Shown here one piece after another: positions 1-34,655 of a stretch of 34,655 nt of DNA. Where the stretch lies: IMG/VR virus record IMGVR_UViG_2531839666_000023, one strand, 5' to 3'. The DNA comes from a virus (lineage: Duplodnaviria > Heunggongvirae > Uroviricota > Caudoviricetes). The stretch's first letter is position 1. Every line of letters starts with the position of its first letter. The position numbers and the translations under genes were made by a program. The notes beneath the pieces are model-generated. The model had not been told where the DNA came from. It saw only the letters and a program-made list of their open reading frames with translations, and made no database searches.

Positions 1-993
1 CTAATCGATGGACAGTTTATGGACACTTTCAGCCAGCGGATTAAAGCTGATTGCATCCTGTAAAAAGTCCGGCGAAAAATGCGCATACGTCATCGTTTGT
101 TGAATCGTGGCATGGCCCAGGATTCGTTGTAGCGTAACGATATTTCCGCCATTCATCATGAAATGTGTAGCGAATGTATGACGCATGACATGGGTGGCCT
201 GCCCTTTCGGCAAGTCCGGCTTCACCTCCTGAAGGATCTCCCGAAATCTGAGGTAATCAGCCTGGTACAACAATCCGGTTCTGCGGGTTTTAATTAACGC
301 AAGTACCGCATCAGAAACGGGAACGGCGCGAGATTTTCCGTTCTTGGTGTTAAAGAACATCACGCGGTTACCTACAATATGTTCCCCACGTAAACCAGCT
401 GCTTCGCCCCACCTTGCCCCCGTGGAAAGACACAGAATGGCAACACGCCGCGCATCTCCATCGAGTCGTTCAAGCAGTCGTTCAATCTCCTCATCTGAAA
501 GAAAGGCCATCTCTGTGTTCCTGACTTTCAGCTTACGTATTCCCCGAACCGGGTTTTCGTTATGGAACACCTCACCCTCAATCAGCGAGCTGAACATTGC
601 AGACAAGGCACACAAATCGCGGTTAATGCTGGAAGGCATTAACCCGGCCTGTAATTTGTCGGACCGGTACCCGAGCATAAATTTTCGCGTCATCTGACTG
701 GCACGAGGATCACCCATCTCACGGTTTATCTTTTCCAGTCTGACCCTGTAGGTATCCCCGTAATCCTGGTTACGACCATCAAGCAACCACCAGGCCTCTA
801 TCAGTTCGGATAACCGACGCTGATCTGCTGGCTTAGCCTGCCATGGCTTATCATGAAAATTCTGCAAAACATACCTTTCAAACTCCTGCGCCTTTGACTT
901 CAGGGTAAAAATCTTACGAATCCGCTTTCCTTCCGTCCCTTGTGGCCTTACATCAACCTTATAACGTCCGTCTTTGAGTTGCTTAATCGACAT
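1..993 (-). CDS. int: Tyrosine integrase, P2 Int-like
   Basis: 330 aa from ATG at 993-991 with GGAGG-like RBS upstream; C-terminal catalytic region (HVMRHTFATHF...LGH...YAH) and overall similarity to P2 Int as recalled; stop codon at 3-1. Confidence 0.9.
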   Translation of the reverse strand: MSIKQLKDGRYKVDVRPQGTEGKRIRKIFTLKSKAQEFERYVLQNFHDKPWQAKPADQRRLSELIEAWWLLDGRNQDYGDTYRVRLEKINREMGDPRASQMTRKFMLGYRSDKLQAGLMPSSINRDLCALSAMFSSLIEGEVFHNENPVRGIRKLKVRNTEMAFLSDEEIERLLERLDGDARRVAILCLSTGARWGEAAGLRGEHIVGNRVMFFNTKNGKSRAVPVSDAVLALIKTRRTGLLYQADYLRFREILQEVKPDLPKGQATHVMRHTFATHFMMNGGNIVTLQRILGHATIQQTMTYAHFSPDFLQDAISFNPLAESVHKLSID

Positions 994-1062
994 GATTAGC
1001 CCCTCCAACGGATAAATTAACCAAACACTCCCTGCGGGATGAAACCCGCTCGATGTGTAACG

Positions 1063-2059: not shown

Positions 2060-2410
2060 ATGGCGAGAACAAAAATTTTTAGTATCAATGAAGCACCAAC
2101 ACTGCCAACCGTGTTTATTCGCATAAACGATAAAAGAACTCCAGGCGGCAATATTTTTTTCAGACTGGATAAACTCGAGGAAGTTTACACCTGCGACAAT
2201 ATTGGCTTAACACCAGAAATAAAGATAAATGGTAGTTCAATCACCCCCACAATCACCTATGAGCAATTTATTAACTTTATCACCGAAGTCATTGATGACG
2301 TTAATAAGGGTATCGAGGGGATAGGAATTTACGAGCTTGTAGTGGATGAAAATACGGTGCGAGACATTGCGCCGCGCACCCAAAAAACAAAGGTTATTAC
2401 ACCAAACTAG
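2060..2410 (+). CDS. Hypothetical protein (116 aa) in A+T-rich insertion
   Basis: ORF in a conspicuously A+T-rich block (by eye); no recognisable motif; 3' end overlaps the convergent ORF by 4 nt. Confidence 0.45.
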   Translation: MARTKIFSINEAPTLPTVFIRINDKRTPGGNIFFRLDKLEEVYTCDNIGLTPEIKINGSSITPTITYEQFINFITEVIDDVNKGIEGIGIYELVVDENTVRDIAPRTQKTKVITPN

Positions 2411-2895
2411 AAGAGAGGTTTATAGAACTTACTGGAAGGGTGAATATCTTTGATACCATGCTCTCTTGCGTACCTTAATGAAAATCTGGAAGCTGATATC
2501 AGTACGTTATATCCATCGTAAATTTTAGCTTTATAAATTAGGTCGCAAAATAACTGAGCATCAGATTGTGCCTGTTCTTTTGTTTTGTTTTTATCTCCTG
2601 TGAATCCATATATTTTCGCAGGTTTATCATCAAAAACATAGAACAAAGACCACACCCAACAGGATTTGATCTCTCTTAAAACTACAGTAACCGAATTTTC
2701 AGAGGCAAGATTTTCATCAACGCATTTTCCATCAGATTCAATAAAAACAGGTGTTTTTATCAGCGTTGTGAATTTTTCAAGTGCCTCGATGCAGTCATCA
2801 CCATGCTCGAAGGCAGGGCTCACAAATAAAAGATTGTCATTAATCAACTCCCAATAAGGAGGAACATCTTTATTTTGACGAACAACAATTTTCAT
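2407..2895 (-). CDS. Hypothetical protein (162 aa) in A+T-rich insertion
   Basis: Internal ATG start preceded by AGGAG at 7 nt spacing; A+T-rich codon usage; convergent with the 2060-2410 ORF. Confidence 0.5.
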   Translation of the reverse strand: MKIVVRQNKDVPPYWELINDNLLFVSPAFEHGDDCIEALEKFTTLIKTPVFIESDGKCVDENLASENSVTVVLREIKSCWVWSLFYVFDDKPAKIYGFTGDKNKTKEQAQSDAQLFCDLIYKAKIYDGYNVLISASRFSLRYAREHGIKDIHPSSKFYKPLF

Positions 2896-3039
2896 TTTCA
2901 GACTCCTGTGCGTTGTTAGTGATTTCTCCGGTCGCCGCGACGTCAACCGGACACAACAATACTAACACGACAACACGCGCCGGGCGTGGTTAAACATCCC
3001 GGCACTGATTTTCATTTAACTTAAACGGGGTTTTCCGAT

Positions 3040-3378
3040 ATGACACAGCGACGCAGCTTCCGCACTGGCGCAGAACGCCACGCTAACCGTTTCTCAACCA
3101 GCGCATCACGCAGCAACTCGCACTACAGCCTGCAGGAAACGCACGCCACACCTGACGGGCATCTGGTTAAACAAACCGGTAAACACACCTGGCTGATTAA
3201 TGATGCCGGAATTGTCATACACAGAGGCGCACGCAACCCGATTACCGGAAATACCTGTTACTCCCTGACTCGCGGAGATGAGCAGTTCGGGCAGGATTTC
3301 ACCCTGCACGAAGCATTAAGAACGGCAGACCGGTTAATCAGCGGTCGCAGTTTTCAGCACCCGGAACATCGCCGCTGA
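3040..3378 (+). CDS. Hypothetical early protein (112 aa)
   Basis: ORF on early-operon strand; no motif recognised. Confidence 0.4.
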   Translation: MTQRRSFRTGAERHANRFSTSASRSNSHYSLQETHATPDGHLVKQTGKHTWLINDAGIVIHRGARNPITGNTCYSLTRGDEQFGQDFTLHEALRTADRLISGRSFQHPEHRR

Positions 3379-3397
3379 TAAATAAAAGGATTCAGCC

Positions 3398-3640
3398 ATG
3401 ATCGAAGCCTACAAAATACTTATTAATAATGCGTTGCAGCGTTATCACTTCGAACTTGCAAACCGGGGTGTAACCCGTGACGAAGGACTTCGTAACTCAC
3501 TGCGGGGCGCAATTATGGGACTGTATAACTGCGCACTGGGCAGCGATGACCGCGAAGCACTGGAAGAATTAAAAGTTATTGTGGCCGAACTGTTTGAAGG
3601 TGAAATCGTTGAGCCTTATTTCACAGAGGTGGCAGCATGA
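3398..3640 (+). CDS. Hypothetical early protein (80 aa)
   Basis: ORF on early-operon strand; stop overlaps next start as ATGA. Confidence 0.4.
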   Translation: MIEAYKILINNALQRYHFELANRGVTRDEGLRNSLRGAIMGLYNCALGSDDREALEELKVIVAELFEGEIVEPYFTEVAA

Positions 3641-3762
3641 GCGTATTTCTTTCATGGGTGATTCTGATTATTTCCGTGCTTATGGCGATTGGCATTATGC
3701 GAATTATCGAAGCGCTGAAAAATATCGAATCTTTATTTACTGGCGAAGAACGCCGTAAATAA
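3637..3762 (+). CDS. Small single-pass membrane peptide (41 aa)
   Basis: Below the 60 aa ORF-track cutoff; hand translation MSVFLSWVILIISVLMAIGIMRIIEALKNIESLFTGEERRK; ATG overlaps the upstream stop (ATGA). Confidence 0.35.
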   Translation: MSVFLSWVILIISVLMAIGIMRIIEALKNIESLFTGEERRK

Positions 3763-3841
3763 ATAACCAACCGGACAGAAAACATTAAAACCATCCGCAT
3801 CTGCGGAGGGCTTCACTCAATCCAGAAACGGAGAAACAGCT

Positions 3842-4120
3842 ATGAGCATCAATACACCTACAGAAATAAACAAACTATTTACCGACCCGGCGCATATTGA
3901 ATTGACGCAAAAAGCGCTGACTGAAATAACCAATGTACTGGATGAAAGAATGTCAGAAATAGATAAAGACAAGCATTTTGCCACCTACATGGCCCTGCAA
4001 ATGCAAAGCATGGCAATGGTGACAGCAAAACAGACCATCAGTGAACTCTATATGAAAAACCTGCGCCTCGAGCGCGAACTGGCAGAACTCCGGGCACAGT
4101 CCGGCCAGTTTTCAGCGTGA
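3842..4120 (+). CDS. Hypothetical early protein (92 aa), coiled-coil-like C-terminus
   Basis: ORF with plausible spacing in operon; no motif recognised. Confidence 0.4.
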   Translation: MSINTPTEINKLFTDPAHIELTQKALTEITNVLDERMSEIDKDKHFATYMALQMQSMAMVTAKQTISELYMKNLRLERELAELRAQSGQFSA

Positions 4121-6199: not shown

Positions 6200-8715
6200 G
6201 CGACCATAATGCACAACTGGCGTACCCGTGGAACGCCCCGCTACCGGTTATCGATCCTGAAACGTTCGGCAGAGCGCAGCCAACCGCATTACGCCAGGCC
6301 ATTCAGAGCTACATCAACGAGGATATTCGCACTGACGCCAGACTGGATGAAGAAACCGTCGCCTTCCTGACAACCACAGACGAAGGGAAGCGAATTAATT
6401 CGCATCTTTACCACGACGAAGAGCGTCGGATCAGGCTGGAAAAACTGGCGCGGCACAAACACGAGAATCCGCCAACACTGGTATCTGAAGCCATGGCAGA
6501 GCTGCGCGCCCTGCCGCCGTTTCTTGCCGGTCCGCTCATCCGTGACCTGGCGCGCCTGAGCCGCAAACAGGAGAGCGCACGCCGGGAAGGGCTTAAGAAT
6601 AACAGCGCATATGCGGCGGATAACTTCGTTCGTCACGGGCTGCGTGCCCGCCTGAAACGTATCGCCCGTGTGAATGAACGCTTTGCCACCCCGGCCTTTA
6701 AGGCCACCGCCGCGCGCGAACGGCTGGATGAACTGCTTATGCTGCCACAGCTGAGCCGTGACGAAATCCAGCGCCTTGCCACCCTGACCGCCACCGCGTT
6801 TTCCACCGCACTGGAGCGCGCATGTGATGAAGTCATCGAAAAGACCGGCAGGGGTGACGATGACCTGCTCACCTGGTTACTGACCTACCAGCCACTGGCA
6901 CACATGGCGTTAAAACTGGGTATCACGCCACCCTGCTGGCCGTCGCTGGAAATCAGGCCCGACCGCCGCACCGACCCCGACCCGGAACGGGTGCCGGGTG
7001 CGGTCATGCGCCTTTCCTGTGCGACATGGTGGAACAGTCAGTTAAGACACCTCCGGGACATCTGGCGTGAAGAACTGTTACGCGCCGCAGGTCTGGTGTC
7101 ACGTAAGACATCGGTATATATCAGCCATGAAGCGTTACTGGACTGGCGCGAAAAACGCCAGCGCACCCGCGATTTTCTGAAGGCCTGGGACATCGAGAAC
7201 GAAGAGGGAGAACGGTTCAGCCTTGAGGATATCTACTGGGCAGGTCTCTCTAATCCGCGTAACCGCCGTAACGAGATGATGACCTGCGCCCGGGGAATGG
7301 AGCAGGTCGCCGAAGCACGCGGCGACGTGGCGTTTTTCGTCACCGTCACAGCCCCTTCCCGTTTTCACAGCGTGAACGATGACGGCAGCCTGAACCCGAA
7401 ATACTGCGGAGCAACGGTACGCGATGCCAGTGATTATCTGGTTTACCGCTTTTTCGCCGCCGTCCGCAGGGCCATCGACAAGGCCGGGCTGGGCTGGTAC
7501 GGCGTGCGCACCGTGGAGCCCCACCACGACGGTACACCGCACTGGCACATGCTGGTATTCACCAGCCAGGAAAACGAAGCCCGTATCACTGAAATCATGC
7601 GCAACGCCGCCATCAGGGAGGACCGCGCAGAGCTGGGTGATGATATCTCCCCGCGTTTTAAATGCAAAAAAATCGACCCGGCAAAAGGCACACCGACAAG
7701 CTATATCGCGACCTATATCGGTAAGAACCTGGACGCCAGCACCTTCATGGGGAATGACCCGAAAACCGGCAAACCTTACGTCGATAAGGAATCAGGCAAA
7801 ACCATGGCCGAAACCGTGGAGAACGCCATCGGCTGGGCAGGCCTTCACCGCATCCACCAGTTCCAGTTCTTCGGTATCCCTCCCCGCCAGGTATGGCGCG
7901 AACTCCGCCGTCTTGCCGGGCAAATGGCCCGTAACCCGGCTGCCCCGCAGCGTCTGGACCATGACGACATTGACGCCATACTGGCCGCCGCCGACGTGGG
8001 ATGTTTTGCCACCTATATCACCCGCCAGGGTGGTGTGCTCATTCCCCGCAACACGTACCTGGTCCGCACCGCATACGAAACTGCCGAAGAGGCCAACGAC
8101 TACGGCGAATTCCCGCAACGCATTTACGGCGTCCGCGCCCCGTCACTCGGGGAGCGCTACACCATATGCACCCACCCGGACACCTGGAAACTGGTCAGAC
8201 GTAAGCCGGAAAACGAAGACCGCACGGACGAGGGTTTTGACGTTGAGTGCGGCTTTGCCGCACCTTGGACTCGTGGCAATAACTGTCCCCCTGACCAGAA
8301 TCTGACCATAAACGCCCCGCCAGAAAGGCAGCCGGACGGACGCAGGGAGCAGCGACTTACCCTGCCGGAAGGTGATTTGGGTGAATGGTTAAGGTCACTG
8401 ACACCCACAGAGCGAAAACAACTCACCAGGCAGCTGAAAAACCCGCCACCTGACACGGAAACCGTGAAAAACGGCGGCATCAGTGCGCCCGCTGGCGGCG
8501 TTCGCGTGAGTGTCGCTCTGACCGCTGAGCCACACATCACCGCACAAATCACCCGCGAGCTTGATGCGCTGGGCGTACAACTGCATGAAAGCGCCGTCGT
8601 TTCCGTCCGTCACGGTGCCCGCGTGCGCCTGGCTGACGGACGCACCGCGTACTGGAATGACAGCACCCGCCGCATTGATATCACCCCCGCACCGAATACG
8701 GAGGCGCCACAATGA
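6187..8715 (+). CDS. Rolling-circle replication initiator/endonuclease, P2 gpA-like (HUH)
   Basis: 842 aa; HUH motif in TPHWHMLVF (around 7537-7560) and YxxxY catalytic-tyrosine motif in SYIATYIGK (around 7699-7725). Confidence 0.85.
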   Translation: MRRMSDHNAQLAYPWNAPLPVIDPETFGRAQPTALRQAIQSYINEDIRTDARLDEETVAFLTTTDEGKRINSHLYHDEERRIRLEKLARHKHENPPTLVSEAMAELRALPPFLAGPLIRDLARLSRKQESARREGLKNNSAYAADNFVRHGLRARLKRIARVNERFATPAFKATAARERLDELLMLPQLSRDEIQRLATLTATAFSTALERACDEVIEKTGRGDDDLLTWLLTYQPLAHMALKLGITPPCWPSLEIRPDRRTDPDPERVPGAVMRLSCATWWNSQLRHLRDIWREELLRAAGLVSRKTSVYISHEALLDWREKRQRTRDFLKAWDIENEEGERFSLEDIYWAGLSNPRNRRNEMMTCARGMEQVAEARGDVAFFVTVTAPSRFHSVNDDGSLNPKYCGATVRDASDYLVYRFFAAVRRAIDKAGLGWYGVRTVEPHHDGTPHWHMLVFTSQENEARITEIMRNAAIREDRAELGDDISPRFKCKKIDPAKGTPTSYIATYIGKNLDASTFMGNDPKTGKPYVDKESGKTMAETVENAIGWAGLHRIHQFQFFGIPPRQVWRELRRLAGQMARNPAAPQRLDHDDIDAILAAADVGCFATYITRQGGVLIPRNTYLVRTAYETAEEANDYGEFPQRIYGVRAPSLGERYTICTHPDTWKLVRRKPENEDRTDEGFDVECGFAAPWTRGNNCPPDQNLTINAPPERQPDGRREQRLTLPEGDLGEWLRSLTPTERKQLTRQLKNPPPDTETVKNGGISAPAGGVRVSVALTAEPHITAQITRELDALGVQLHESAVVSVRHGARVRLADGRTAYWNDSTRRIDITPAPNTEAPQ

Positions 8716-15958: not shown

Positions 15959-16432
15959 ATGAGCGAACCGAGCTTCAGCGTCAGCGGTAAACCGCTGAAA
16001 TCCACACCGCAGACGGTGACAAACGGCGAGCCGTTCTGGCCGGACCTTGATCTGGCTGAGCTTCAGGGGTCACGCACGCTTCCGGCTGATTTACCCGACG
16101 ACACGGCGGCCATGGCGCTGCTTGCCGCAGTGGCCGAGGTAAACACCACGCTGGCGCCGGTTGTGGCGCACTGGAAGGCGCAGGGGCATGAACGCGCCGC
16201 AGACGTACCGGGGGCCAGGCTGGGCGATGAAACCCAGCTGGTCGCACAGTACAAAAAGGCCGTTTATGCCCGTGCCAAGGCCGATCTTATGGGCGAGTTC
16301 GCCACCATTGGTCGCCGTGAAACCTATCCGGGGCAGGAAAGCGAGGACACACGCGCCACCTTACTGGCTGAAGCCTCGCTGGTCATGCGTAACATGCTGG
16401 GGCACAGACGCGCGGGAGTGCACATTATATGA
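15959..16432 (+). CDS. Head completion/stabilisation protein, P2 gpL-like
   Basis: Internal ATG with GAGG RBS in the 15908-16432 ORF; position after the small terminase gene. Confidence 0.6.
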   Translation: MSEPSFSVSGKPLKSTPQTVTNGEPFWPDLDLAELQGSRTLPADLPDDTAAMALLAAVAEVNTTLAPVVAHWKAQGHERAADVPGARLGDETQLVAQYKKAVYARAKADLMGEFATIGRRETYPGQESEDTRATLLAEASLVMRNMLGHRRAGVHII

Positions 16433-16902
16433 ACCAGCTGGAAAGCCTGACCGCCTTCATTACCGAAAATCTGCCGCCTGACGCCATGCAGTTCTTCATG
16501 AGCAGTCAGGAAGACGCGCAGCTTATCCGCAGTCAGAAGGCGCTGGGTAACGACCAGATCCGCATGGGCGTGATGACGTACACCGGCGTGATTGCATGGG
16601 ATAACTTCCCGTTCCGCAAATACTCACCGGGGCTGGTTTACGCGCTGGTCATGGCCTGGCTGGAAGAGCACGCGGACCCGCTGAGGGAGGAATTCCGCCC
16701 GGAGGATGTGAACGTCGACCCGCAGTTTAACGACGAGGACTCGTGCCTTCTCGATATCACGGTGGGACTGGCTGACCCGCTGATCATCCGGGTGCAGGAA
16801 GAGGGTCCCGTTCCGTACAGGGGGAAACGCTGGACACTGGTTAACCCTGAAATCTGGACGGCGGAAACCATGGATCTGTTTGTCAGCAGGAGCCGCGAAT
16901 GA
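16429..16902 (+). CDS. Putative head-tail joining or tail completion protein
   Basis: 157 aa, translationally coupled after the head genes; function assigned by position only. Confidence 0.35.
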   Translation: MNQLESLTAFITENLPPDAMQFFMSSQEDAQLIRSQKALGNDQIRMGVMTYTGVIAWDNFPFRKYSPGLVYALVMAWLEEHADPLREEFRPEDVNVDPQFNDEDSCLLDITVGLADPLIIRVQEEGPVPYRGKRWTLVNPEIWTAETMDLFVSRSRE

Positions 16903-19233: not shown

Positions 19234-19539
19234 ATGCCGGACGGTCAGACTTCACTCCTGGCAAAACTGATTATCATCGGTGCTGCCATCGGGCTGGGGC
19301 GTCTCATGGTGAGCCGCGATCGCATCACAGCCCGTCTGCTTATCGGGCGAATGATTATGGGCTCTGCCGTGGCACCGGTTGCCGCCATTCCGCTGTTTAA
19401 ATTTCCGGACATGCCGGAGCTGGTAGTGGTCGGTCTGGCGTGCGCGCTGGGCATTATGGGCAGCGCCTTTATTGAAGAATGCTTTTGCCGTCTGGCAGAC
19501 CGCTACCTGAAGCAGAAGGAACGCAGAAATGACCCATAA
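19234..19539 (+). CDS. Holin-like membrane protein
   Basis: 101 aa with three hydrophobic segments and a charged C-terminus (RYLKQKERRNDP); sits in the lysis cassette upstream of the endolysin and spanin genes. Confidence 0.5.
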   Translation: MPDGQTSLLAKLIIIGAAIGLGRLMVSRDRITARLLIGRMIMGSAVAPVAAIPLFKFPDMPELVVVGLACALGIMGSAFIEECFCRLADRYLKQKERRNDP

Positions 19540-20281
19540 GCCTTACATTTCGCCTTCCCTGAGCCTGTATCACGCGCAGGCGCATGACGTTCTGCGGATG
19601 CTGCCGGAAAACAGTGTGGACGCGCTCATCACAGACCCGCCATACAGTTCAGGTGCCACACACAAGGCGGGGCGGACATGCCAGGGCAGCCACGCCAAAT
19701 ACATCAACGATGAAGATCTTCACCGCTTTGAAGGCTTCGAAGGCGAGAACATGGACGCCCGTTCATGGGAATACTGGACGCATCTGTGGATGACACAGGC
19801 ATGGCGCACGGTACGACCCGGTGGTTACGCCCTGGTCTTCACCGACTGGCGGCAGTTGCCCGCGCTGACGGACGCATTCCAGGCCGCCGGCTTTACCTGG
19901 CGGGGGATCGTGGCATGGAACAAGGGACGGGCCTCAAGAACACCGCATACCGGTTATTTTCGTCACCAGTGCGAATATGTGGTCTGGGGCAGTAAAGGCG
20001 CGCTGGGCAAATCCCCTTCCGGGCCGTTCGACGGCTGCATCACGCACCACACACGCCCACAGGAGAAACAGCACCCGACAGGTAAACCGGAATCGTTGAT
20101 GGATGAGCTTGTGCGCGTGTGTGAACCCGGAGGGCTGATCCTCGATCCGTTTATGGGGTCCGGCACCACGGGCGTGGCCGCCCTTCGCCGGGGCTGCCGT
20201 TTTACGGGTATTGAACTGAACGCCCACTATTTCAGCGTAGCACAGGCGCGTCTTACGGGGACGGAACAGAGGAGTGACTGA
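19529..20281 (+). CDS. DNA methyltransferase, beta-class amino-MTase, probably N6-adenine; no restriction partner seen
   Basis: DPPY catalytic motif near the N-terminus (ITDPPYSSG) and AdoMet-binding FxGxG motif near the C-terminus (LDPFMGSGTTG); motif order IV then I indicates beta class. Confidence 0.8.
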   Translation: MTHKPYISPSLSLYHAQAHDVLRMLPENSVDALITDPPYSSGATHKAGRTCQGSHAKYINDEDLHRFEGFEGENMDARSWEYWTHLWMTQAWRTVRPGGYALVFTDWRQLPALTDAFQAAGFTWRGIVAWNKGRASRTPHTGYFRHQCEYVVWGSKGALGKSPSGPFDGCITHHTRPQEKQHPTGKPESLMDELVRVCEPGGLILDPFMGSGTTGVAALRRGCRFTGIELNAHYFSVAQARLTGTEQRSD

Positions 20282-21566: not shown

Positions 21567-23753
21567 ATGGCCAGCCAGCTGGATTTCATTATCAATCTGA
21601 CAGACCAGCTTACCCGCCCGCTGCGGCAGGTTCAGGAATCCGTGACGGGATTCGCCGAACGCTCGCAGGGCGCGTTCGCGCGTATCGGTGTGGGTGTGGC
21701 CGGACTGTGGGGCGTGGCCGAAGGTATCCGCGCCGCGATGGATCCGGCGTGGGAGATGCAGAAGGCGCTGGGCGAGCTTGAGGCCAAAGGCGTCGGGGCG
21801 CAGGCGCTGACCGCCCTCACCACGCAGGCCATGAAACTGGGGACCGCATTCGGTCAGTCTTCCACGGAGATCATCCGTTCCGCATGGCATATTCGCGGCG
21901 CACTGGACGGACTGAGCGACGGGGATTTACCCCGTGTGACGGCAGCAACCAGCACCCTGGCCGTGGCTGCCCGCGTCAGCAGCGAAGAGGCGAGCGGCTA
22001 CCTTGCCGCCATGGGTGCCCGTTTCCGCAGTGAGTTTTCTGCCATGGGTGCCGTGGGGTTTGCTGAAGATCTGGCAGGTAAAACCGCGTGGATGGTTCAG
22101 CAGTTCGGTGTGGAAATGAGCACCATGCAGGAGCTTATTGAGGGCACCAAAAACGCGGGCGCGGATTTTGGCGTCAGCATGGCAGAGCAGTTTGCCATAC
22201 TGGGCACCCTGTCACGGACCATGGGCACCGAGGCATCGGGCATCTATGAGGAATTCCTGCGCAGTGCCCCCGCTGCCGCACAAAAAATGGGGATGAGTTT
22301 TGTCGATGTCACCGGGAGGATTTTACCCATGGGTGACATCCTCGACCGTCTGCAGGCGAGGTTCGGCAGGAACATTGAGGGTAACGTGGCGGCACAACAG
22401 GCGCTGGATGACGCCTTCGGCAGTGGCGCGGACGTGATTAAAAAACTCTGGGGACAGCAGGAAATGCTTAACCGGAGCATATCAGCGCTGGGGCGTAATG
22501 ACGGCATGAAGCGTGCCACGGAAATGGCTGAAGCCATGACCGACCCGTGGGATCGCCTTGTGGCCTCCTTCTACAACATCCGGGCCGCCATCGGTAATGC
22601 CCTCTACCCCATTCTCGCACCACTGGCTGGCCGTTTTGCCGATATCGGCGCGACGTTCGTGCGCTGGCTGAACATGTTCCCGAACATCGCCCGCTGGCTG
22701 GGTTACATCACGCTGACCATGCTGGCGCTGGGCGCAGCCGGTGCGGTCACGAACATCGTGCTGGGTGTGTTCAGCTTCATCATGGAAGGCCATAAGGCCA
22801 TCATAAAGGGCGCCAGGGCAGCCTGGAGTCTGTACACGCTTGCACTCACAAAAGTACGCAGTGCCATCATTGCCACCAGTCTTGCCGCGCGTCTGGCGGG
22901 CGTGTCGTTTCTGACCATGAGCGCCCCGGTCCTCCTGGTTGCCGCCGCCATCGCTGCTCTGGTGGTGGTGGCCATTAAGTTCTGGCAGCCCATCAAAGCC
23001 TTTATTCGCGGCTTTATTGATGGTTTTACCAGCGCACTGGACGCCATGAGCCCGGTGACTGCCGCGTTCGGTGACATTGCCCGGGCGCTGGCCCCGGTAT
23101 GGCAGGGCATAAAAACCCTGTTCAGTGCCTTCTCCGATCTGTTTGCACCGGTACAGCTGACCACGGGACAGATGAACAGCGTCACCCGTGCCGGGGAAAC
23201 ATGCGGTCGCGTGGTGGCCGCAGCGGTAAGCCTGATATCCCCCGCGCTGGAGGTGGTTATCAGCGTGATCAGAACCCTGATCGACATCTTCGCCATCGTC
23301 ATCAGAGGGTGGCAGGACGTGGTGGCTGCATTTGACCCGACCGCCCCGGTCGAATCCTTCCGGAAAATGGCGGGGATCATCGGTAACGTCTTCGGGGACT
23401 TATGGAACGTCATTAAAAACTCGTTTAACCGGACGTGGAACTGGCTTGCGGAAAAGCTGAACAAAATCCCCGGTATCAGTATCGACATGAAGCCCACGGA
23501 GCAGGTGAACACCATGACGCGGGGCGCAACAGGCAGCACCGTACCTCCGCAGATTGCAGAAACCGCCGTCCCGGCACTGGCAGGCAACCGCATCAGCGCA
23601 GAGCTGCCACCCGGAGGCATACGCAACCAGATACGCACGGACACCTCAACCCGTATCGACAACAGCCGGACGTTCGGCAATCTGACAATCAACACGCAGA
23701 ACCCGATGACGCCGGGGCAACTGGATGAATGGACGGAGCTTTACGCGGGATGA
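21567..23753 (+). CDS. Tail tape measure protein
   Basis: 728 aa, Ala/Gly-rich with hydrophobic segments, directly after the chaperone and frameshift pair. Confidence 0.8.
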   Translation: MASQLDFIINLTDQLTRPLRQVQESVTGFAERSQGAFARIGVGVAGLWGVAEGIRAAMDPAWEMQKALGELEAKGVGAQALTALTTQAMKLGTAFGQSSTEIIRSAWHIRGALDGLSDGDLPRVTAATSTLAVAARVSSEEASGYLAAMGARFRSEFSAMGAVGFAEDLAGKTAWMVQQFGVEMSTMQELIEGTKNAGADFGVSMAEQFAILGTLSRTMGTEASGIYEEFLRSAPAAAQKMGMSFVDVTGRILPMGDILDRLQARFGRNIEGNVAAQQALDDAFGSGADVIKKLWGQQEMLNRSISALGRNDGMKRATEMAEAMTDPWDRLVASFYNIRAAIGNALYPILAPLAGRFADIGATFVRWLNMFPNIARWLGYITLTMLALGAAGAVTNIVLGVFSFIMEGHKAIIKGARAAWSLYTLALTKVRSAIIATSLAARLAGVSFLTMSAPVLLVAAAIAALVVVAIKFWQPIKAFIRGFIDGFTSALDAMSPVTAAFGDIARALAPVWQGIKTLFSAFSDLFAPVQLTTGQMNSVTRAGETCGRVVAAAVSLISPALEVVISVIRTLIDIFAIVIRGWQDVVAAFDPTAPVESFRKMAGIIGNVFGDLWNVIKNSFNRTWNWLAEKLNKIPGISIDMKPTEQVNTMTRGATGSTVPPQIAETAVPALAGNRISAELPPGGIRNQIRTDTSTRIDNSRTFGNLTINTQNPMTPGQLDEWTELYAG

Positions 23754-25825: not shown

Positions 25826-27885
25826 ATGGCGAAATCTGTAATTACCAGCGCCTTTATCCGGCTCAAGGCACAGCAGGCGGCGGAAGGCACCCCCGTTGTG
25901 CTGGATGAGTTTGTTTTTGCAAACGTCCCGGACCTCAACCCGGAAACACCGGTATCCCCCGACGAAACCCTGCCACCTGAAGATCAGATTGTTCACCGCC
26001 AGGCCGTTGGCAAAACCGGCGTGGTGAATGAGAATGCCGTGGTTTATTCGGTCACCCTGGGGGCAGAGCTGGGTGATTTTGAATTTAACTGGGTGGGACT
26101 GGTCAGCAAAGCAACCAGCACGCTGGCCATGATTGTTCACGCCCCCACACAGAAAAAAATCAGAACCCACAACGGTAACGAAGGTAATGTGCTGGTCCGT
26201 TCCATGCTCATGGAGTACAGCGGTGCGAAGGAAGCCACAGGTATCACCACCCCGGCGCAGACCTGGCAGATAGACTTCACGGCACGCCTGGCGGCCATGG
26301 ACGAGCGCCAGCGCCGGGAAAACATCGATATTTACGGTAACGCTGCATTCTTTGGGGACGGCTGGCTGGTTAAAAAAGGCGAAAGATGGTCACTCTGCAA
26401 AGGGACCGGTTACGTGGAGGGATTACGCGCAGAGCTGACCGAAGACATACCGCTGACCACGCCAGACTTCCCGTCCCGTATCTGGCTGACAGTATGGTGG
26501 ACCGGTACGCTCACCAGTGAATGGACGGTGGAGCACGATATTATCATGGCCGACCCCGCCGCCACGGAAGAGATCCTGCTGGAAGCACACAGGAAGGAGG
26601 CCGCCCGGCAATATTTTTTTGCCCTTGCTGACATTGATGAAGACGGCAACGTGACTGACCTGCGCCCCAGAGGAACGCCGGAAGAACGCCGCTGGCTGGA
26701 CGCTCTGAAAAAACACGAGAAATCACGCAACCACCCGGACGCAACGCTGAAAGAAAAGGGCTTCACACAGTTAAGCAGCGCCACCACCAGTACATCAGAG
26801 ACACAGGCAGCCACGCCAAAGGCTATAAAGATCGCCATGGACAACGCCGATGGTCGGCTTGCGAAAAACCGCAATGGTGAGGACATCCCCAACAAGGAGC
26901 TGTTCCTGATCAACGTGGGCGCACCACGCGTTTATGCAAAAGACGGGTACGTGGGTGAAGCAGGGCAACGCTGGACAACAGAACAATTCGTGGAATGGCT
27001 GAATGAACGTGGCGCCTTCAGACCAGGACTCTGGATATTCAAAGCCAATATTTCACTTTCCCGGCACAGCGTGCTCACTGATACGGGCTATGGTGATATC
27101 TGCCTTGGAGGCTGCCTTATCGAAGTATCAGGCGACATCAACGGGGGGATCATCAGGATCACGACAGGTCTCGAAAGCCCAAACCCTGCCGACATGCACC
27201 TCCGCACACAGTTCACCGGGGTTGTTTTAAATAAAGGGAAAAGCACCATCTGGTACCGCACTTACACGGACAAAAACAAACCCACACCACAGGACATCGG
27301 CGCACTGCCTGCAAGTGAGTTGTTACCCGCAGGCGTTCCCCTGCCGTGGCCGTCAGACACCCCACCTGCCGGTTACGCCATCATGGTGGGGCAGACATTC
27401 GATAAAGCACGATATCCCCTGCTGGCAAAAGCCTATCCGGATGGTCGTATCCCGGATATGCGTGGCTGGACAATCAAGGGAAACCTGCCAGCGGTCGTGC
27501 GGTATTGTCACAGGAGCAGGACGGCATCAAATCGCACACCCACGGAGGGAGCGTCTCAAATACTGACCTTGGCACAAAAACGACCTCATCCTTCAATTAC
27601 GGCACAAAAACAACAAACAGCGCGGGGCCGTTCAGCGCAACAATATCATTAAGAACCGCCACCGCGTCACCGGAAGGCAGCGGTGACTGGACCGCATACG
27701 GGCCGGGCTCCGGGGCGAACCTGATCGCCAGAGTTTCGGAACACACACATTCGGTAAGCATTGGCGAACACATCCACACGCTCGCACTGGGTCAACATGG
27801 CCACGGCCTGACCATTAACCCCACCGGTAATGCGGAAAACACCGTCAAAAACATCGCATTTAACTACATCGTGAGGCTTGCATAA
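25826..27885 (+). pseudogene. Tail fibre protein (gpH-like) with reading frame interrupted near 27478-27483
   Basis: N-terminal ORF 25826-27652 and overlapping C-terminal ORF in another frame to 27885; the fibre-like sequence ([22 protein letters not shown]...[15 protein letters not shown]) continues in the second frame from the GGGAAA tract; its stop overlaps the tail-fibre-assembly start (TAATG). Confidence 0.7.
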
Positions 27886-28481
27886 TGACCTTTAAAATGA
27901 GCGAACACCCACAGACAATTAAAATCTACAACCTGTCAGCCGGAACAAATGAATTTATCGGCGAAGGCGATGCCTGGATCCCTCCGCATACCGGACTGCC
28001 TGCGCACTCAACGGACATTGCCCCGCCTGACATTCCTGAAGGACACGTGGCTATCTTTGATGAGGATGAAAACGCCTGGCACCTCATGGAAGATCACCGG
28101 GGTAAAGCCGTCTGGCGTCTGGAGTCGGGGAGCGCCTTACTGATTACTGAGCCGGGCCCGTTACCGGAAAACGTGACAGAAATAAAACCGGACGGGGAGT
28201 TCTGCCGGTGGGATGGTTCATCATGGGTTAAGGATGAAGCAGCAGAACAGGCTTACCGGGTGAGCGAGGCGGAGAACAAAAAACGGGAATTAATACAGGA
28301 AGCAACAAATACAATAAACATCCTCCAGGATGCCGTGGATTTAAATATGGCGACCGACGATGAAAGCGCCCTGCTTCCCCTGTGGAAAAAATACCGGGTA
28401 TTACTGAACCGGACAGACACGGGCAACGCGCCGGATATTGTCTGGCCTGAATCCCCTTCGCCGGATCATCACGCAGGCTGA
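27885..28481 (+). CDS. Tail fibre assembly protein, gpG/Tfa-like
   Basis: 198 aa directly downstream of and coupled to the fibre gene. Confidence 0.7.
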
Positions 28482-28492
28482 CCGGAGGCACC

Positions 28493-29218
28493 ATGACGTG
28501 GACAAGAAAAACAATCAGCGTCAGCGCTGACATGCCCCCGCTGAGCTGTTCCGTCATCCCCGTCACACCGTGGACTTACGGGCTGGGACGATATGAAGAA
28601 TCGGGGGTATATTTAAGCCCTCCGAACGCCATAAACTGGCTGGCCGGGAAAATGGCCGGAAGCCGTGCATCCGGCGACGTGACCATTATCATGATTGCCG
28701 AAAACACCCACGATCTTTTTATACAGTCAATGGCGGCACTGACCACCGTTCTGCCCGTGCCGGTATTCACGCAGGCACAGCGCATGGCACAGGCTGCCGC
28801 CAGTCTGAGCACTGACAAAATGCAAATCCCGATCACCACCGACACCCTGCCCGCACCTGTGCATCTTTCCGTTTCCACAATACGCAGCGCAGTCAGTGCC
28901 GCCCGTGCAGCACAGGCCAGGCAGCTGGCAGCACAACGCCCGGATGCCGCAGGGCTTCGCCGCCAGATAAGCCGCTTTATCAGCAGACGGGCTGGCGCAC
29001 TTGCCGGACTGGAAGAGGGGATCAGAACACTGGCAGAACAGAAGGCGCAGGCCTGGGTATTTCAGTACCGGGGGTATCACCGCGCCGCAGCGGCGGCCAT
29101 GGTGAAGGATATCCCGGCACCGACCGCCGTACATACTGTGGCCGCACTCCTGGCGGCAGACTCATTAACCGAACTGGGGAAAATGATCCATGAGCCAGAC
29201 CGCACTGCTCGCCCTTGA
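28493..29218 (+). CDS. Hypothetical protein (241 aa) after the tail fibre assembly gene
   Basis: ORF with Ala/Arg-rich helical C-terminal half; no motif recognised. Confidence 0.35.
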   Translation: MTWTRKTISVSADMPPLSCSVIPVTPWTYGLGRYEESGVYLSPPNAINWLAGKMAGSRASGDVTIIMIAENTHDLFIQSMAALTTVLPVPVFTQAQRMAQAAASLSTDKMQIPITTDTLPAPVHLSVSTIRSAVSAARAAQARQLAAQRPDAAGLRRQISRFISRRAGALAGLEEGIRTLAEQKAQAWVFQYRGYHRAAAAAMVKDIPAPTAVHTVAALLAADSLTELGKMIHEPDRTARP

Positions 29219-29732
29219 TGGTGAGGGTATTTTCATGCAGAACATGGTGATTTCGCCCTCGATGCAGTTCCAGGAAAAGGACCAGTCCGGTCAGACATCG
29301 AGCACCGCGAACGCCGAGCAGGGCATCAAGGCCAAAGAGCTTCGCGTAACCGGGATGATCACCTTTGACAATGAGCGGGCCCTTCAGCGCATTTTCCAGC
29401 TGGCCTCTGCCACCACCGGGGACGGTGCCCTGAAAGTTTACCGTATCGCAAACGCCACCGCTGCCGCCATTAACTTTCGTGAAGGGACATTTTCCGGGCA
29501 GATAGACGCACAGCAGCAGACCGACCGCCTCGCCTGGCAGGTCAGCTTCACATTACGCGAAAGACGAAGCGTACCGGAAAAACGCCAGGCACGCGCCACC
29601 CCCGGCAGCAGCCGTAAACAGACGCCGCAGACGCCCGGCGCAAAAGGCAAAACCGTGGCCAACGAAACACCGGAGAAAATGACCTGGTTCGAAGAAAAGG
29701 TCCTCAAACCCGTCAATGATGCGCTGGAGTAA
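29190..29732 (+). CDS. Hypothetical protein (180 aa or shorter from internal ATG at 29235)
   Basis: ORF overlapping the previous gene end; alternative start at 29235 has a GGTGAGGG RBS; function unknown. Confidence 0.35.
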   Translation: MSQTALLALDGEGIFMQNMVISPSMQFQEKDQSGQTSSTANAEQGIKAKELRVTGMITFDNERALQRIFQLASATTGDGALKVYRIANATAAAINFREGTFSGQIDAQQQTDRLAWQVSFTLRERRSVPEKRQARATPGSSRKQTPQTPGAKGKTVANETPEKMTWFEEKVLKPVNDALE

Positions 29733-29734
29733 CC

Positions 29735-31408
29735 ATGAACCCCACTAAACGTCTGTTACTGGGTAACGACACCATTCAGCTGGTCAGCTGTTCCGTCATG
29801 CTTGAGCTGAACGCGTGCGGACGCGGATTTATCACGGCCAGAACGGAGCAGAACTACACCGGGCGCCCTGTTCGTCTCGATATCGGATACGGAAACGACC
29901 TGGTGCGCTGGTTTACCGGATACGTTGAACGCAGCCAGCCCGCTGAAAACGGCTCGGTGCGGCTTCTGATTCGTGAAATGGCGGGGATCCTTGATCACCC
30001 CTTCCCCTGTTCATTTCAGCACCCGACAATGCGCACGGTCACACAGTGGCTGAGTGAGACCAGCGGGCTGGAAATCATCCTGCCGGACAACGCGGCTTAC
30101 ACTGACAGACCCGTTCCGCATTTCACGCACAGCGGCACGGGCTACGAACTGCTGGCCAGTCTGGGGCGTATTTTCTCCGTACCGGACTACATCTGGCATC
30201 CGTTACCGGACGGCGGCATTATGGCCGCTGCCGCCGCGCAGGGGATGTTTTCCGGTCGCCCCGTCACCATCCCGCACGAGTTCAGCCAGGCATCAACGGG
30301 CGGACACAGTATGACCCTCCCGATGATTCAGACGCTGCGACCGGGTGTGGAGGTGAACGGTCAGCGCCTGACGATGGTCATGCTGGAAGATGACAACATG
30401 ACCATCACGTGGACACCACGCAATAAAGCCACCGGCGCCCCCCTCCAGAAGTCCCCTTTCCGTCGCCAGGCTGAAAAGGCCTTCCCTGAACTGGCATCAG
30501 GGCTTCACCTGCCCAAACTGGCACGTGTTGAGGCGCCGACCGAAGCCGTCAGCGCGGGCAATATTGCCGACCCGTTCAGACCCCGCTACGCGGTGAGTCT
30601 CCAGCTGCTTGACGAGAACGGCAACCCGGCAGCGGATACGCCCGTTTATAACGCCGTTCCCCTCCCCGTTCCTATGGCGGGCAGTGAGTCCGGCATGTTC
30701 CAGTTCCCGCCACCCGGAACCCTGGTGGAAGTGGGATTTGTGGAAGGCCGGGCGGATAAGCCCTTCATCCGCCAGATAATGGCAGAGGGCCACAATCTGC
30801 CCGACGTGAAGCCGGGCGAGCAGTTGCAGCAACAGCGCGACGGCGTATCGCAGCGCGTGACGGTCGCCGGAGACTGGGAGCGCCAGACAGACCAGCGGAT
30901 ACAGGAGACATCACGCGAGCGCGTGGTGAGCGCAGACGAGGAGACGCGGAGCCTGACCAGCCGGGAGACCACCATACAGGCAACCGACACAACCACCGTC
31001 CTGGGCGTATCCACGCTTCAGGCTGGCGCAGTCACCCATATCACTGAAGAGAACTACAGCATCAGCACGGGCGGGCACATGATGGTGGTTGCCGGTACCT
31101 GTGAGCGCGACGTGGAAGGCGACACACTGGACACCGTGGGCGGCAGCCTTACCGAAAAGATTAAGGGCGTCCGTCACAGTATTGCGCTGGCGCAGAAGCT
31201 GGTTGGCGATACGGTGAAGCTGGGAAACGAGGACATTAATGTACTGACCATGCTGACGGACCTTGCCGATGTGGTGGAAGAGCTGGCCGATATTACGGCA
31301 TCACATACCCACCCCAAAACGGGCACGTCTCCGCAGGCCGCACAGTTCAGCCAGGTCGCTCAGGAGTGCCGCCAGCTTAAAAATAAATATTCACCAATAA
31401 TCGAATAA
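29735..31408 (+). CDS. Putative baseplate spike/hub protein (gpV-like OB-fold and beta-helix-like C-terminal region)
   Basis: 557 aa; central segment GMFQFPPPGTLVEVGFVEGRADKPFI resembles the gpV OB-fold signature; C-terminal repetitive beta-strand-like segments; the last ORF of the prophage. Confidence 0.4.
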   Translation: MNPTKRLLLGNDTIQLVSCSVMLELNACGRGFITARTEQNYTGRPVRLDIGYGNDLVRWFTGYVERSQPAENGSVRLLIREMAGILDHPFPCSFQHPTMRTVTQWLSETSGLEIILPDNAAYTDRPVPHFTHSGTGYELLASLGRIFSVPDYIWHPLPDGGIMAAAAAQGMFSGRPVTIPHEFSQASTGGHSMTLPMIQTLRPGVEVNGQRLTMVMLEDDNMTITWTPRNKATGAPLQKSPFRRQAEKAFPELASGLHLPKLARVEAPTEAVSAGNIADPFRPRYAVSLQLLDENGNPAADTPVYNAVPLPVPMAGSESGMFQFPPPGTLVEVGFVEGRADKPFIRQIMAEGHNLPDVKPGEQLQQQRDGVSQRVTVAGDWERQTDQRIQETSRERVVSADEETRSLTSRETTIQATDTTTVLGVSTLQAGAVTHITEENYSISTGGHMMVVAGTCERDVEGDTLDTVGGSLTEKIKGVRHSIALAQKLVGDTVKLGNEDINVLTMLTDLADVVEELADITASHTHPKTGTSPQAAQFSQVAQECRQLKNKYSPIIE

Positions 31409-31422
31409 TCATTCACTTTAAC

Positions 31423-31447
31423 AGGCCGCGCAATGTGGCCTTTTTTA
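31423..31447 (+). terminator. Rho-independent terminator-like hairpin after the last tail gene
   Basis: GGCC(G)...GTGGCC stem followed by a T-run (GGCCTTTTTTATT). Confidence 0.4.
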
Positions 31448-31536
31448 TTCCCCCGACAATAAAAAATATTCATCACCGGACATCACCCACCACGAAAAAA
31501 CCGTCCGCAGCAGAAAAAAAGATGGACGAAACGCCC

Positions 31537-32099
31537 CACGTAATCCCCACGTAAAACGTCGCGTAACGAAGAGATAACCCCGCCAGCCTGATTCGATCCC
31601 CTGACATCAGAAAACGATTTCTGCGCCCCAAAATCGCCGCAAATGGCCGGAAATTTTCGGGGGCGACGTAACGCGTAAAGTGACGTAATCGGCGCTACCC
31701 CGCACACGCCTCCGGTATTTGTGTACGATAAATTTTGCAAATCGAAATGGGTGCAAAACACCCCGCCAGGGCGCGCCATTACTGAGGTTTTCCCTTCTGA
31801 ATGGTTTTGCACTTTGTGCAAGGTTTTGCAAAAGTGTGCAAAAACTCCGGCTTTCTGAGGATCCCGAAAAATTTTAATGCACTGAATAACAAGAGATTTT
31901 TAAAATTACGTCACGATCGAAGATCTGAAAAAGGATCCGGCGACGAAAACGAAAAAATCAGGAAAGCCAGAACTGGCGCGGCCTGGCGGGGAGTGGCAGC
32001 AAAAATCACTTTTGCACACTTTTGCACAACTGCTCCGAAAGAGGATGGCGAAGGGGAAGGAAAACAGCCGGATCATCCGTTGCACGTAACGGACGTAAA
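31537..32099. repeat. Dispersed paired (C/G)ACGTAA heptamer repeats
   Basis: At least seven copies in both orientations, several as pairs spaced ~9-11 bp (e.g. 31537-31543 and 31548-31554; 31665-31671 and 31683-31688; 32083-32089 and 32093-32099). Confidence 0.5.
31733..32028. repeat. Cluster of TTTTGCA(C/A)A boxes (DnaA-box-like) with GATC palindromes
   Basis: Two tandem perfect TTTTGCACA at 32010-32018 and 32020-32028; further copies or near-copies at 31733, 31751, 31805, 31814, 31824 and 31835; GATC palindromes GGATCC 31859-31864, CGATCG 31914-31919, AGATCT 31921-31926, GGATCC 31933-31938; A+T-rich spacer 31866-31910. Confidence 0.5.
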
Positions 32100-32260
32100 A
32101 GGTAAATTACGCGCGGGTGCCTTTCGGCTGACGGCTGGAAGGAATACCTGAAGGCCGGATGTGAAAAGGCCCCGAGTCAACTAACGTTAACCCGAGGCCC
32201 TGACACTTCCTACCTGACAAGTGGAAGGTTAGCGCCTCCCTGTAAAAGGAGTCAAGCGCT

Positions 32261-32401
32261 ATGCCGCAAAAAACGATCATAGTGAGCATTTTATGCATAA
32301 CTATTTTGATGATTGTCTGGATGATACACAAGTCACCGTGTGAGTTCAGGCTTAACATCATGTGGTCACAATTTGCGGCGTTCTTGCAGTGTAAACAGTA
32401 A
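32261..32401 (+). CDS. Hok/Gef-family type I toxin peptide (46 aa), copy 1
   Basis: Hand translation MPQKTIIVSILCITILMIVWMIHKSPCEFRLNIMWSQFAAFLQCKQ; hydrophobic N-terminal helix plus KSxCExR...AAF signature as recalled for Hok-family toxins; below ORF-track cutoff. Confidence 0.65.
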   Translation: MPQKTIIVSILCITILMIVWMIHKSPCEFRLNIMWSQFAAFLQCKQ

Positions 32402-32491
32402 GAAACCGCAGCGGGGGTGAAAGCCCCCGCTATCCGGTTGCCGGGTTCGGTCGATATGGCACCCTTTCTCCGTTGGATTACAGACGTATTT

Positions 32492-32514
32492 GCCCGCGAC
32501 ATGCGGGCCTTTTT
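32492..32514 (+). terminator. Rho-independent terminator after hok-like copy 1
   Basis: GCCCGC-GACAT-GCGGGC hairpin followed by CTTTTT. Confidence 0.6.
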
Positions 32515-32982
32515 GTTCAGTTGTATTTATTGTGGTCGTTACTGGCAGTGGTATTAACTGATTTTGCATGAATAGCACAAATTTTTTCCACGATAACACC
32601 ACACGCTTCAAGATCTTCCGAGCGTGAAACCTTTATTTTTGTAATAGTCTCAGGATTATCAGCCGTTCCACTTTGCACAACCTCAATTTCAATTTTTTTC
32701 TTGAAAGAATCATTTTCATCGCCCCGACACAGGACAGAGTAAGCCTGTGCGAAAGAATATCACCAGTGCGATAGCGTTGTCTGCTTCAACGCCAGGCATT
32801 GCGCACACAAAGGGAAATCAGTACATTACACGCGGGTGCCTTTCGGCTGACGGCTGGAAGGATTACCTGAAGGCCGGATGTGGAAAGGCCCCGAGTAAAA
32901 CATTTGTTTAACCCGAGGCCTAACCCTTCCTACCCTAGACAAGTGGAAGGTTAGCGTCTCCCTGTAAAAGGAGTCAAGCGCT

Positions 32983-33123
32983 ATGCCGCAAAAAACGATC
33001 ATCGTGAGCATTTTATGCTTAACCATGTTGTTGACCGTCTGGATGATACACCGTTCTCCGTGTGAGTTCAGACTTAACATCATGTGGTCAGAATTTGCGG
33101 CGTTCTTGCAGTGTAAACCGTAA
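32983..33123 (+). CDS. Hok/Gef-family type I toxin peptide (46 aa), copy 2
   Basis: Hand translation MPQKTIIVSILCLTMLLTVWMIHRSPCEFRLNIMWSEFAAFLQCKP; same architecture as copy 1. Confidence 0.65.
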   Translation: MPQKTIIVSILCLTMLLTVWMIHRSPCEFRLNIMWSEFAAFLQCKP

Positions 33124-33216
33124 GAAACCGCAGCGGGGGTGAAAGCCCCCGCTATCCGGTTGCCAAAGGTTCGGTCGAAAGTCGCACCCTCACACAAAAG
33201 TCACAAAGAAAAACAA

Positions 33217-33362: not shown

Positions 33363-34655
<1,293 letters not shown>

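Follow-up and report, generated by a model that had tools for sequence, protein, structure and literature searches.

Last three genes of the late tail operon in an HP1-type Escherichia coli prophage: a probable central baseplate hub module

Gene block downstream of the tail-fibre-assembly gene

The three genes considered here occupy positions 28493–31408 of IMG/VR record IMGVR_UViG_2531839666_000023, a stretch of 34,655 nucleotides (nt) that was analysed in full and is called the window below. The whole window represents one complete prophage of the HP1 subgroup of P2-like Peduoviridae, integrated in Escherichia coli beside serS (33363–34655, minus strand). The block follows the tail-fibre-assembly gene, which is of the P2 gpG/HP1 orf32 type (27885–28481, plus strand; Pfam Caudo_TAP, 1.7e-38). 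It consists of plus-strand genes for an HP1 orf33-like protein of 241 amino acids (aa) (28493–29218), an HP1 orf34-like “baseplate complex protein” of 180 aa (29190–29732), and an HP1 orf35-like baseplate protein of 557 aa (29735–31408).

The 241-aa gene starts 11 nt after the stop codon of the tail-fibre-assembly gene, with a GGAGG ribosome-binding site read from the sequence at 28484–28488 (plus strand), 4 nt before its ATG. The 241- and 180-aa genes overlap by 29 nt, and only 2 nt separate the 180-aa gene from the 557-aa gene. No promoter-like site was found in the region 27500–32300. A strong plus-strand hairpin resembling an intrinsic terminator (31423–31441; 8 pairs, of which 5 are G-C), with a T-run extending to 31450, begins 15 nt past the stop codon of the 557-aa gene and likely marks the end of the late tail operon; in phage K139, the terminator T39 is annotated at the equivalent place after orf39. 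The G+C content of the block was 0.57–0.63, like that of the rest of the late region, and fell only after approximately 31500.

All three open reading frames (ORFs) are real genes and not chance ORFs. Protein homologues of each were found in at least seven Peduoviridae genera, and all three matched PHROG families: the 241-aa protein phrog_1677, to which no function is assigned (3.5e-59), the 180-aa protein at 4.3e-66, and the 557-aa protein phrog_2258, “baseplate protein” (9.6e-242). The RefSeq-annotated prophage of E. coli strain 48, which is 98.5% identical, contains the same three coding sequences with identical boundaries, labelled “hypothetical protein,” “baseplate complex protein,” and “hypothetical protein,” respectively. 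This confirmed the initial annotation of the locus, which had placed three genes of these sizes directly after the tail-fibre-assembly gene.

A BLASTP comparison with phage HP1 revealed similarity of the three proteins, each along most of its length, to orf33 (27% identity, E-value 6e-20), orf34 (43%, 6e-39), and orf35 (38% over the full length, 7e-142). In HP1, these are the last late genes: orf31 encodes the fibre and orf32 its chaperone, followed by orf33 (258 aa; UniProt P51737), orf34 (187 aa; P51738), and orf35 (533 aa, “baseplate protein”; P51739). An identical gene order after the fibre and chaperone genes was observed in seven reference phages, namely HP1, Vibrio phage K139 (orf37–39), Pasteurella phage F108 (orf42–44), Cronobacter phage ESSI-2, Salmonella phage SI7 (Irrigatiovirus), Yersinia phage vB_YenM_324, and Pseudomonas phage UFJF_PfPro (PfPro below). 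We also retrieved 80 IMG/VR loci with the N-terminal part of the 557-aa protein, 79 of which had enough upstream sequence to judge, and orf33, orf34, and orf35 were colinear in 78 of these 79. In the remaining locus (L022; IMGVR_UViG_2834113715_000003, 2284–3998), umuD, umuC, and a different fibre gene stood in place of orf33 and orf34 before the orf35 homologue; this is probably a rearranged or decayed prophage.

The window thus shares with the HP1-type phages all three protein families, their order, their similar sizes, and a location that closes the late operon, with the fibre and chaperone genes ahead and a terminator behind, and it differs only in sequence divergence (identity to SI7 from 48% for orf33 to approximately 68% for orf35). 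The genome as a whole is also of the HP1 type, with a DUF2586 sheath, an HP1_Orf24 tube, a DUF2590 protein, and lysis genes located between the tube and tape-measure genes. Homology, position and order, and genome type therefore all assigned the block to the HP1 tail end. With an order identical to that of HP1 orf31–35, the block shows the gene arrangement ancestral to the HP1 subgroup as a whole and not a rearranged P2 layout. The initial annotation had considered that tail genes might have been displaced to the end of the module; the comparison did not bear this out.

Hub-spike protein and putative tube initiator

As judged from its sequence, the 557-aa protein combines a predicted hub and a predicted spike in one chain, an architecture similar to that of VgrG. 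The putative hub module comprises residues 1–236 (29735–30442, plus strand), and the putative spike module comprises residues 239–557 (30449–31408, plus strand), with an oligonucleotide/oligosaccharide-binding (OB) fold at approximately 310–345, a beta-helical needle at approximately 360–510, and an apex. The division into two modules was evident from PfPro, in which two separate overlapping genes encode proteins of 234 aa, aligning to residues 1–236, and 323 aa, aligning to residues 239–557. In addition, phrog_4011 covered only residues 242–556 of the 557-aa protein (3.8e-78). The PfPro gene pair is located at 6241–7889 of its locus (L007), and the hub and spike genes are split in phages ACA1 and C5a as well. 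Thus, gpD-like and gpV-like modules have undergone fusion as well as fission within the HP1 subgroup.

The gpV-like OB-fold segment reported in the initial annotation was indeed present. In the window protein, the match to Pfam Phage_base_V at residues 310–345 was weak (18.6 bits against a cut-off of 23.8), and it was clearer at the family level, where seven of nine members matched (best E-value 3.5e-5). Single members, or two at a time, also matched Gp5_trimer_C, gpV Apex, Gp5_C, and DUF2345. When the orf35 family profile was compared with the PDB, it matched VgrG (8gra; E-value 9.4e-4) in the region of the OB fold and helix, and fragments of the C-terminal beta-helix of T4 gp5 at weak E-values of 0.02–0.04. 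The spike apex carries the HxH motif H524-T-H526 (31304–31312, plus strand), which was kept in all 78 IMG/VR homologues and in all the reference phages, with counterparts in P2 gpV (HTH, 195–197) and Mu gp45 (HIH, 183–185). In the gpV apex, this motif reportedly binds iron; for the window protein, the correspondence is a motif match.

The N-terminal region had been described as an extension of approximately 290 aa of unknown function. Instead, residues 1–236 appear to form a hub module: they matched phrog_196, “baseplate hub,” at 4.6e-6, and a published HHpred analysis of ACA1, a phage of the HP1 subgroup, assigned the N-terminal half of HP1 orf35 to gpD and the C-terminal half to gpV, the two being fused in HP1 (PMC10612066, Table S1, footnote d). 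A comparison of the module with Mu gp44 by hhalign was colinear but weak (117 columns, E-value 0.0096, probability 4%). By sequence, the module belongs to neither the PHROG of P2 gpD (phrog_52) nor that of Mu gp44 (phrog_177), and hhalign of the orf35 family against the single proteins P2 gpD and gpV gave no signal. The PDB profile search with the hub module returned nothing significant; its top match was a 581-aa AlgoCIS chain of 7aef at an E-value of 0.9, a score not usable as evidence. This chain carries the label “SerB,” occurs in three copies, and may be the VgrG-like protein of AlgoCIS.

The 180-aa protein matched a single Pfam family, PF25759 (HP1_ORF34, “HP1 ORF34 baseplate complex protein”), at 1.2e-53 and fell outside Phage_P2_GpU (PF06995). 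The initial annotation had found no recognisable motif in either of the first two proteins; this held for the 241-aa protein but not for the 180-aa protein. An AlphaFold2 model of the latter was built from 70 homologues, with a mean predicted local distance difference test score (pLDDT) of 72.6. The model contains a core at residues 7–125 (29208–29564, plus strand) with the beta-sandwich and helix topology of the tube protein family. Most of this core had a pLDDT above 90, chiefly over residues 50–125, and the loop 38–44 was of low confidence. A low-confidence, disordered linker (127–161) precedes a conserved C-terminal helix, assigned from the secondary structure of the model (residues 166–179; 29685–29726, plus strand), in which F167, E168, V171, L172, P174, and L179 were invariant among the 70 homologues.

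The best structural matches of the model were ripcords (PA0626 of pyocin R2 and gp38/gp39 of Pa193) and tube initiators. The matches included the tube initiators of Pam3, A-1(L), Bas63, and PhiTE, LysM-containing initiators of contractile injection systems, and Mu gp43. Sequence identity of the 180-aa protein to PA0626, Pa193 gp38/gp39, Mu gp43, and the Pam3, A-1(L), Bas63, and PhiTE proteins was 9–13%. The modelled protein thus has both a tail-tube fold and a C-terminal helix, and it is predicted to be a tube initiator equivalent in function to P2 gpU and the pyocin ripcord. It has no LysM domain, and its arm is short, with a linker of approximately 35 residues and one helix of 14 residues, which is nearer to P2 gpU than to the long pyocin ripcord. 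In the P2 structure, six gpU tube initiators sit atop the gpD trimer, and the C-terminal helix contacts the gpJ/gpI triplex; the pyocin ripcord is treated there as the equivalent of the tube initiator (bioRxiv 10.64898/2026.09.14.750843). A tail terminator was also considered for one gene of the block and rejected: the gpR homologue is located at 16429–16902, and none of the three proteins matched it.

The orf33 family and alternative explanations

The 241-aa protein matched no canonical tail protein. An exhaustive hidden Markov model search of 1.84 billion cluster representatives (E-value <= 0.001) found 239 members of the orf33 family. Among the 150 members listed, all were of 323 aa or less, and the full-length ones clustered around two lengths, 235 and 297 aa, none of them big enough for an added domain. 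No Pfam domain was found in 26 diverse members, and the family profile had no relative in the PDB. Single-sequence PDB searches likewise gave no match for either the 241- or the 180-aa protein. The AlphaFold2 model of the 241-aa protein (pLDDT 75.8) gave generic alpha/beta structural matches only.

Nevertheless, orf33 always accompanied orf34 and orf35, even in ACA1, where a cassette with a diversity-generating retroelement replaces the fibre module. Its divergence tracked that of orf34 and orf35 (Spearman rho 0.52–0.57, p <= 2e-6), with a rho of 0.25 (p 0.08) against the fibre chaperone; this correlation is modest evidence, as the loci are not phylogenetically independent. The orf33 homologue of ACA1, gp46, was detected in purified virions at a spectral count per mass of 0.09, similar to gpW (0.08), gpJ (0.05), and gpV (0.06) (PMC10612066, Table S2). 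The homologue in vB_YenM_324 is annotated as “structural protein,” a label of unstated basis, and a literature search on this phage found no paper. Thus, the 241-aa protein is probably a low-copy component of the baseplate or of its assembly.

Two other roles for the 241-aa protein were weighed. It may act as a non-structural assembly factor of the hub/tape-measure complex, similar to T4 gp51 or gp26/28, or as an ejected internal protein. This is somewhat unlikely, given that the ACA1 homologue was present in CsCl-grade virions at a normalised level similar to those of gpW, gpJ, and gpV, and that the vB_YenM_324 homologue carries a structural label. Membership in the fibre system, either as a second fibre chaperone or as a fibre-to-baseplate adaptor, would agree with the location of orf33 directly after the fibre chaperone gene, both here and in 46 of 72 IMG/VR loci. 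It would also agree with the median identity of orf33, the fastest evolving of the three (40%, against 57% and 63% for the others), as fibre-associated proteins often evolve fast. However, in ACA1 the fibre module has been replaced by the diversified antireceptor cassette, and the orf33 homologue still lies beside the gpU, gpD, and gpV homologues. In F108, it lies apart from the fibre genes, with other small ORFs in between. Its divergence, moreover, did not correlate significantly with that of the tail-fibre-assembly gene, in contrast to orf34 and orf35, and its reading frame in the window runs into that of orf34. A role in the fibre system is therefore very unlikely.

The initial annotation had also proposed that all three genes could be accessory genes in a variable slot after the chaperone gene, similar to Z/fun of P2; as such cargo, they would be a moron or a defence island. 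A non-essential gene, fun(Z), does sit after gene G in P2, and the 241-aa protein has no recognisable domain. However, fun(Z) lies beyond the terminator of the V operon and on the other strand, whereas the block of the window is on the same strand as the tail-fibre-assembly gene and almost adjoins it, with neither a terminator nor a promoter-like site in between. The content of the block was invariant across genera and in all but one of the metagenomic relatives, its G+C content matched that of the late region, and two of its three genes carried baseplate signatures. Hence, the slot was not variable in content, was not an independent transcription unit, and was not atypical in composition. Without the block, the prophage would also have no hub, spike, or tube initiator. 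The cargo explanation, refuted by synteny in the seven reference phages and in 78 of the 79 IMG/VR loci, is extremely improbable.

The remainder of the window offered no substitute for the block. When P2 gpX, gpU, gpD, and gpV and Mu gp43–45 were searched against all six frames of the window, the block included, with tblastn and phmmer, only chance-level matches were obtained (all E-values > 0.02), and P2 gpW, queried in the same way, found nothing elsewhere in the window. Pfam scans of the remaining ORFs of the window detected no hub, spike, or tube-initiator domain. All other core tail parts were assigned and no alternative hub genes were present; therefore, the block must supply the hub, the spike, and the tube initiator.

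Taken together, the results indicate that the block is very probably the central baseplate hub module of an HP1-subgroup P2-like myovirus, encoded by the three cistrons that close the late tail operon. The operon would run from the sheath and tube through the lysis genes, chaperone, tape measure, gpW-like protein, gpJ, gpI, fibre, and fibre chaperone to the block and the terminator. In the arrangement that we infer, the 557-aa protein would be a trimer, with its N-terminal portion of approximately 236 residues serving as a hub seated on the tube initiator and its C-terminal portion of approximately 320 residues as a membrane-piercing spike composed of the OB fold, the beta-helical needle, and the HxH apex. 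The 180-aa protein would form a hexamer between the hub and the first tube ring and would start tube polymerisation, and its C-terminal helix on the flexible linker could reach the gpJ/gpI wedges, as in P2 gpU and the pyocin ripcord. The 241-aa protein may occupy the hub-to-wedge “glue” position of the P2 LysM protein gpX. No gpX homologue was detected in the window by pairwise search, and none was listed for ACA1 by HHpred (PMC10612066). As a tentative possibility, baseplates across the HP1 subgroup could use the orf33-like protein in place of gpX, as a glue or hub-to-wedge adaptor that lacks LysM; it would then belong to a new class of parts of contractile-tail baseplates, with a fold unseen in solved baseplates.

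Several observations weigh against this assignment of the block. The hub identity of residues 1–236 is less certain than the other parts, as it leans on weak profile evidence: the module had no match to Phage_GPD in the Pfam scan or to any PDB sequence in the profile search, and its 236 residues are far fewer than those of gpD (387 aa) or Mu gp44 (379 aa). The 180-aa family showed no sequence similarity to P2 gpU (hhalign E-value 0.26), and a tube fold alone cannot tell a tube initiator from other tube-like baseplate proteins. In the ACA1 study, the gpU assignment was flagged as “uncertain” and the homologue was not detected in virions, and the detection of the orf33 homologue amounted to 2 spectra in this one distant phage (PMC10612066). 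The structure search found no fold relative of the 241-aa protein, and baseplates of the HP1 subgroup have neither a solved structure nor genetics.

The proposal of the initial annotation that hub, spike, and terminator genes lie at the end of the tail module was partly correct. A hub and a spike are predicted there, fused in one protein, whereas the 180-aa protein is a predicted tube initiator and not a terminator, the latter being the gpR-type protein encoded elsewhere; the 241-aa protein had no counterpart among these functions. Compared with gpU, gpD, and gpV of P2, the window would encode the same functional set: an initiator that has the tube fold and a helix at its C-terminus, a hub that forms a trimer, and a spike in which an OB fold and a beta-helix are followed by an HxH apex. 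However, the hub gpD and the spike gpV are separate proteins in P2 and fused in the window, and no pairwise or single-profile sequence similarity links the two sets. P2 has its hub-module genes in two places, the V operon and the end of the F operon, whereas in the window they follow the fibre genes; and P2 has the LysM protein gpX, in place of which the window has the unrelated 241-aa protein. In VgrG of the type VI secretion system and Afp8/Pvc8 of extracellular contractile injection systems, a single chain contains a hub resembling gp27 and, after it, an OB fold and beta-helix resembling those of gp5, the layout also predicted for the window protein. The best PDB sequence matches of the 557-aa protein were VgrG chains and Pvc8, which were marginal (E-values 1e-3 to 0.2), also in the single-sequence search, and limited to the OB fold and helix of the spike half. 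VgrG has a far longer gp27-like part than the N-terminal module of the window protein, and the latter has a built-in gpV-type HxH apex where VgrG has a PAAR cap as a separate protein; that the window has no PAAR gene is deduced from annotation.

Genome context and significance

The prophage begins with an integrase gene (1–1008, minus strand), followed by a cox-like gene and the gpA replication protein gene. The portal and large terminase genes, on the minus strand, precede those of the gpO scaffold, P2-type capsid, small terminase, gpL, gpR, and gpS; the gpR-type tail terminator gene is located at 16429–16902 (PF06891, 7.2e-18). Next are the DUF2586 sheath and HP1_Orf24 tube genes; a lysis cassette with a holin, a DNA methylase, an M15 endolysin, and spanins; the tail chaperone gene; and the tape-measure gene (21567–23753). 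The DUF2590 (gpW equivalent), Baseplate_J, Tail_P2_I, fibre, and fibre chaperone genes then lead to the three-gene block.

The tail-fibre gene (25826–27885) is frameshifted, with the junction at approximately 27481, and reads as pieces of 608 and 126 aa. Relative to three IMG/VR contigs (L011, 99.5% identical, L012, and L013), one A was lost from an A-run, GGGAAAACC -> GGGAAACC; in L011, the gene is an intact ORF of 686 aa. The fibre gene of strain 48 is likewise marked as pseudogene fragments by RefSeq. Either the frameshift is a homopolymer sequencing error, or the gene has been genuinely inactivated by mutation, which would leave the prophage without the ability to adsorb.

An N6/N4 DNA methyltransferase gene (19529–20281, plus strand; N6_N4_Mtase 1.2e-27, phrog_67) was found between the holin and M15 endolysin genes of the lysis cassette. 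In SI7 and HP1, no gene occupies this position. It is this gene, and not the three-gene block, that looks like a real inserted accessory gene.

Past the operon terminator, at 31433–32160, two small ORFs of 84 and 111 aa, “hypothetical” in strain 48, sit in a stretch of lower G+C content ahead of two tandem copies of the hok/gef toxin locus. These copies lie between the prophage end and serS (approximately 32100–33200), and the mutually similar minus-strand ORFs 32107–32502 and 32826–33197 are the mirror image of the hok/gef repeat of approximately 720 bp. In other E. coli strains, the hok/gef pair and serS were found beside an ogr/Delta-like gene, the present prophage not being there; the serS site thus appears to be used by different P2-like elements.

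The block has already been described in the HP1 genome annotation, as Pfam HP1_ORF34, as the PHROG “baseplate protein,” and in the ACA1 study (PMC10612066), with the exception of the orf33 family, which is uncharacterised. The annotation of such prophages can be upgraded, with the 557-aa gene named as a hub-spike fusion and the 180-aa gene as a putative tube initiator. Odd as it looks beside P2, this gene order is standard in the family's other large branch; therefore, the block should be classed neither as prophage cargo nor as a defence hotspot.

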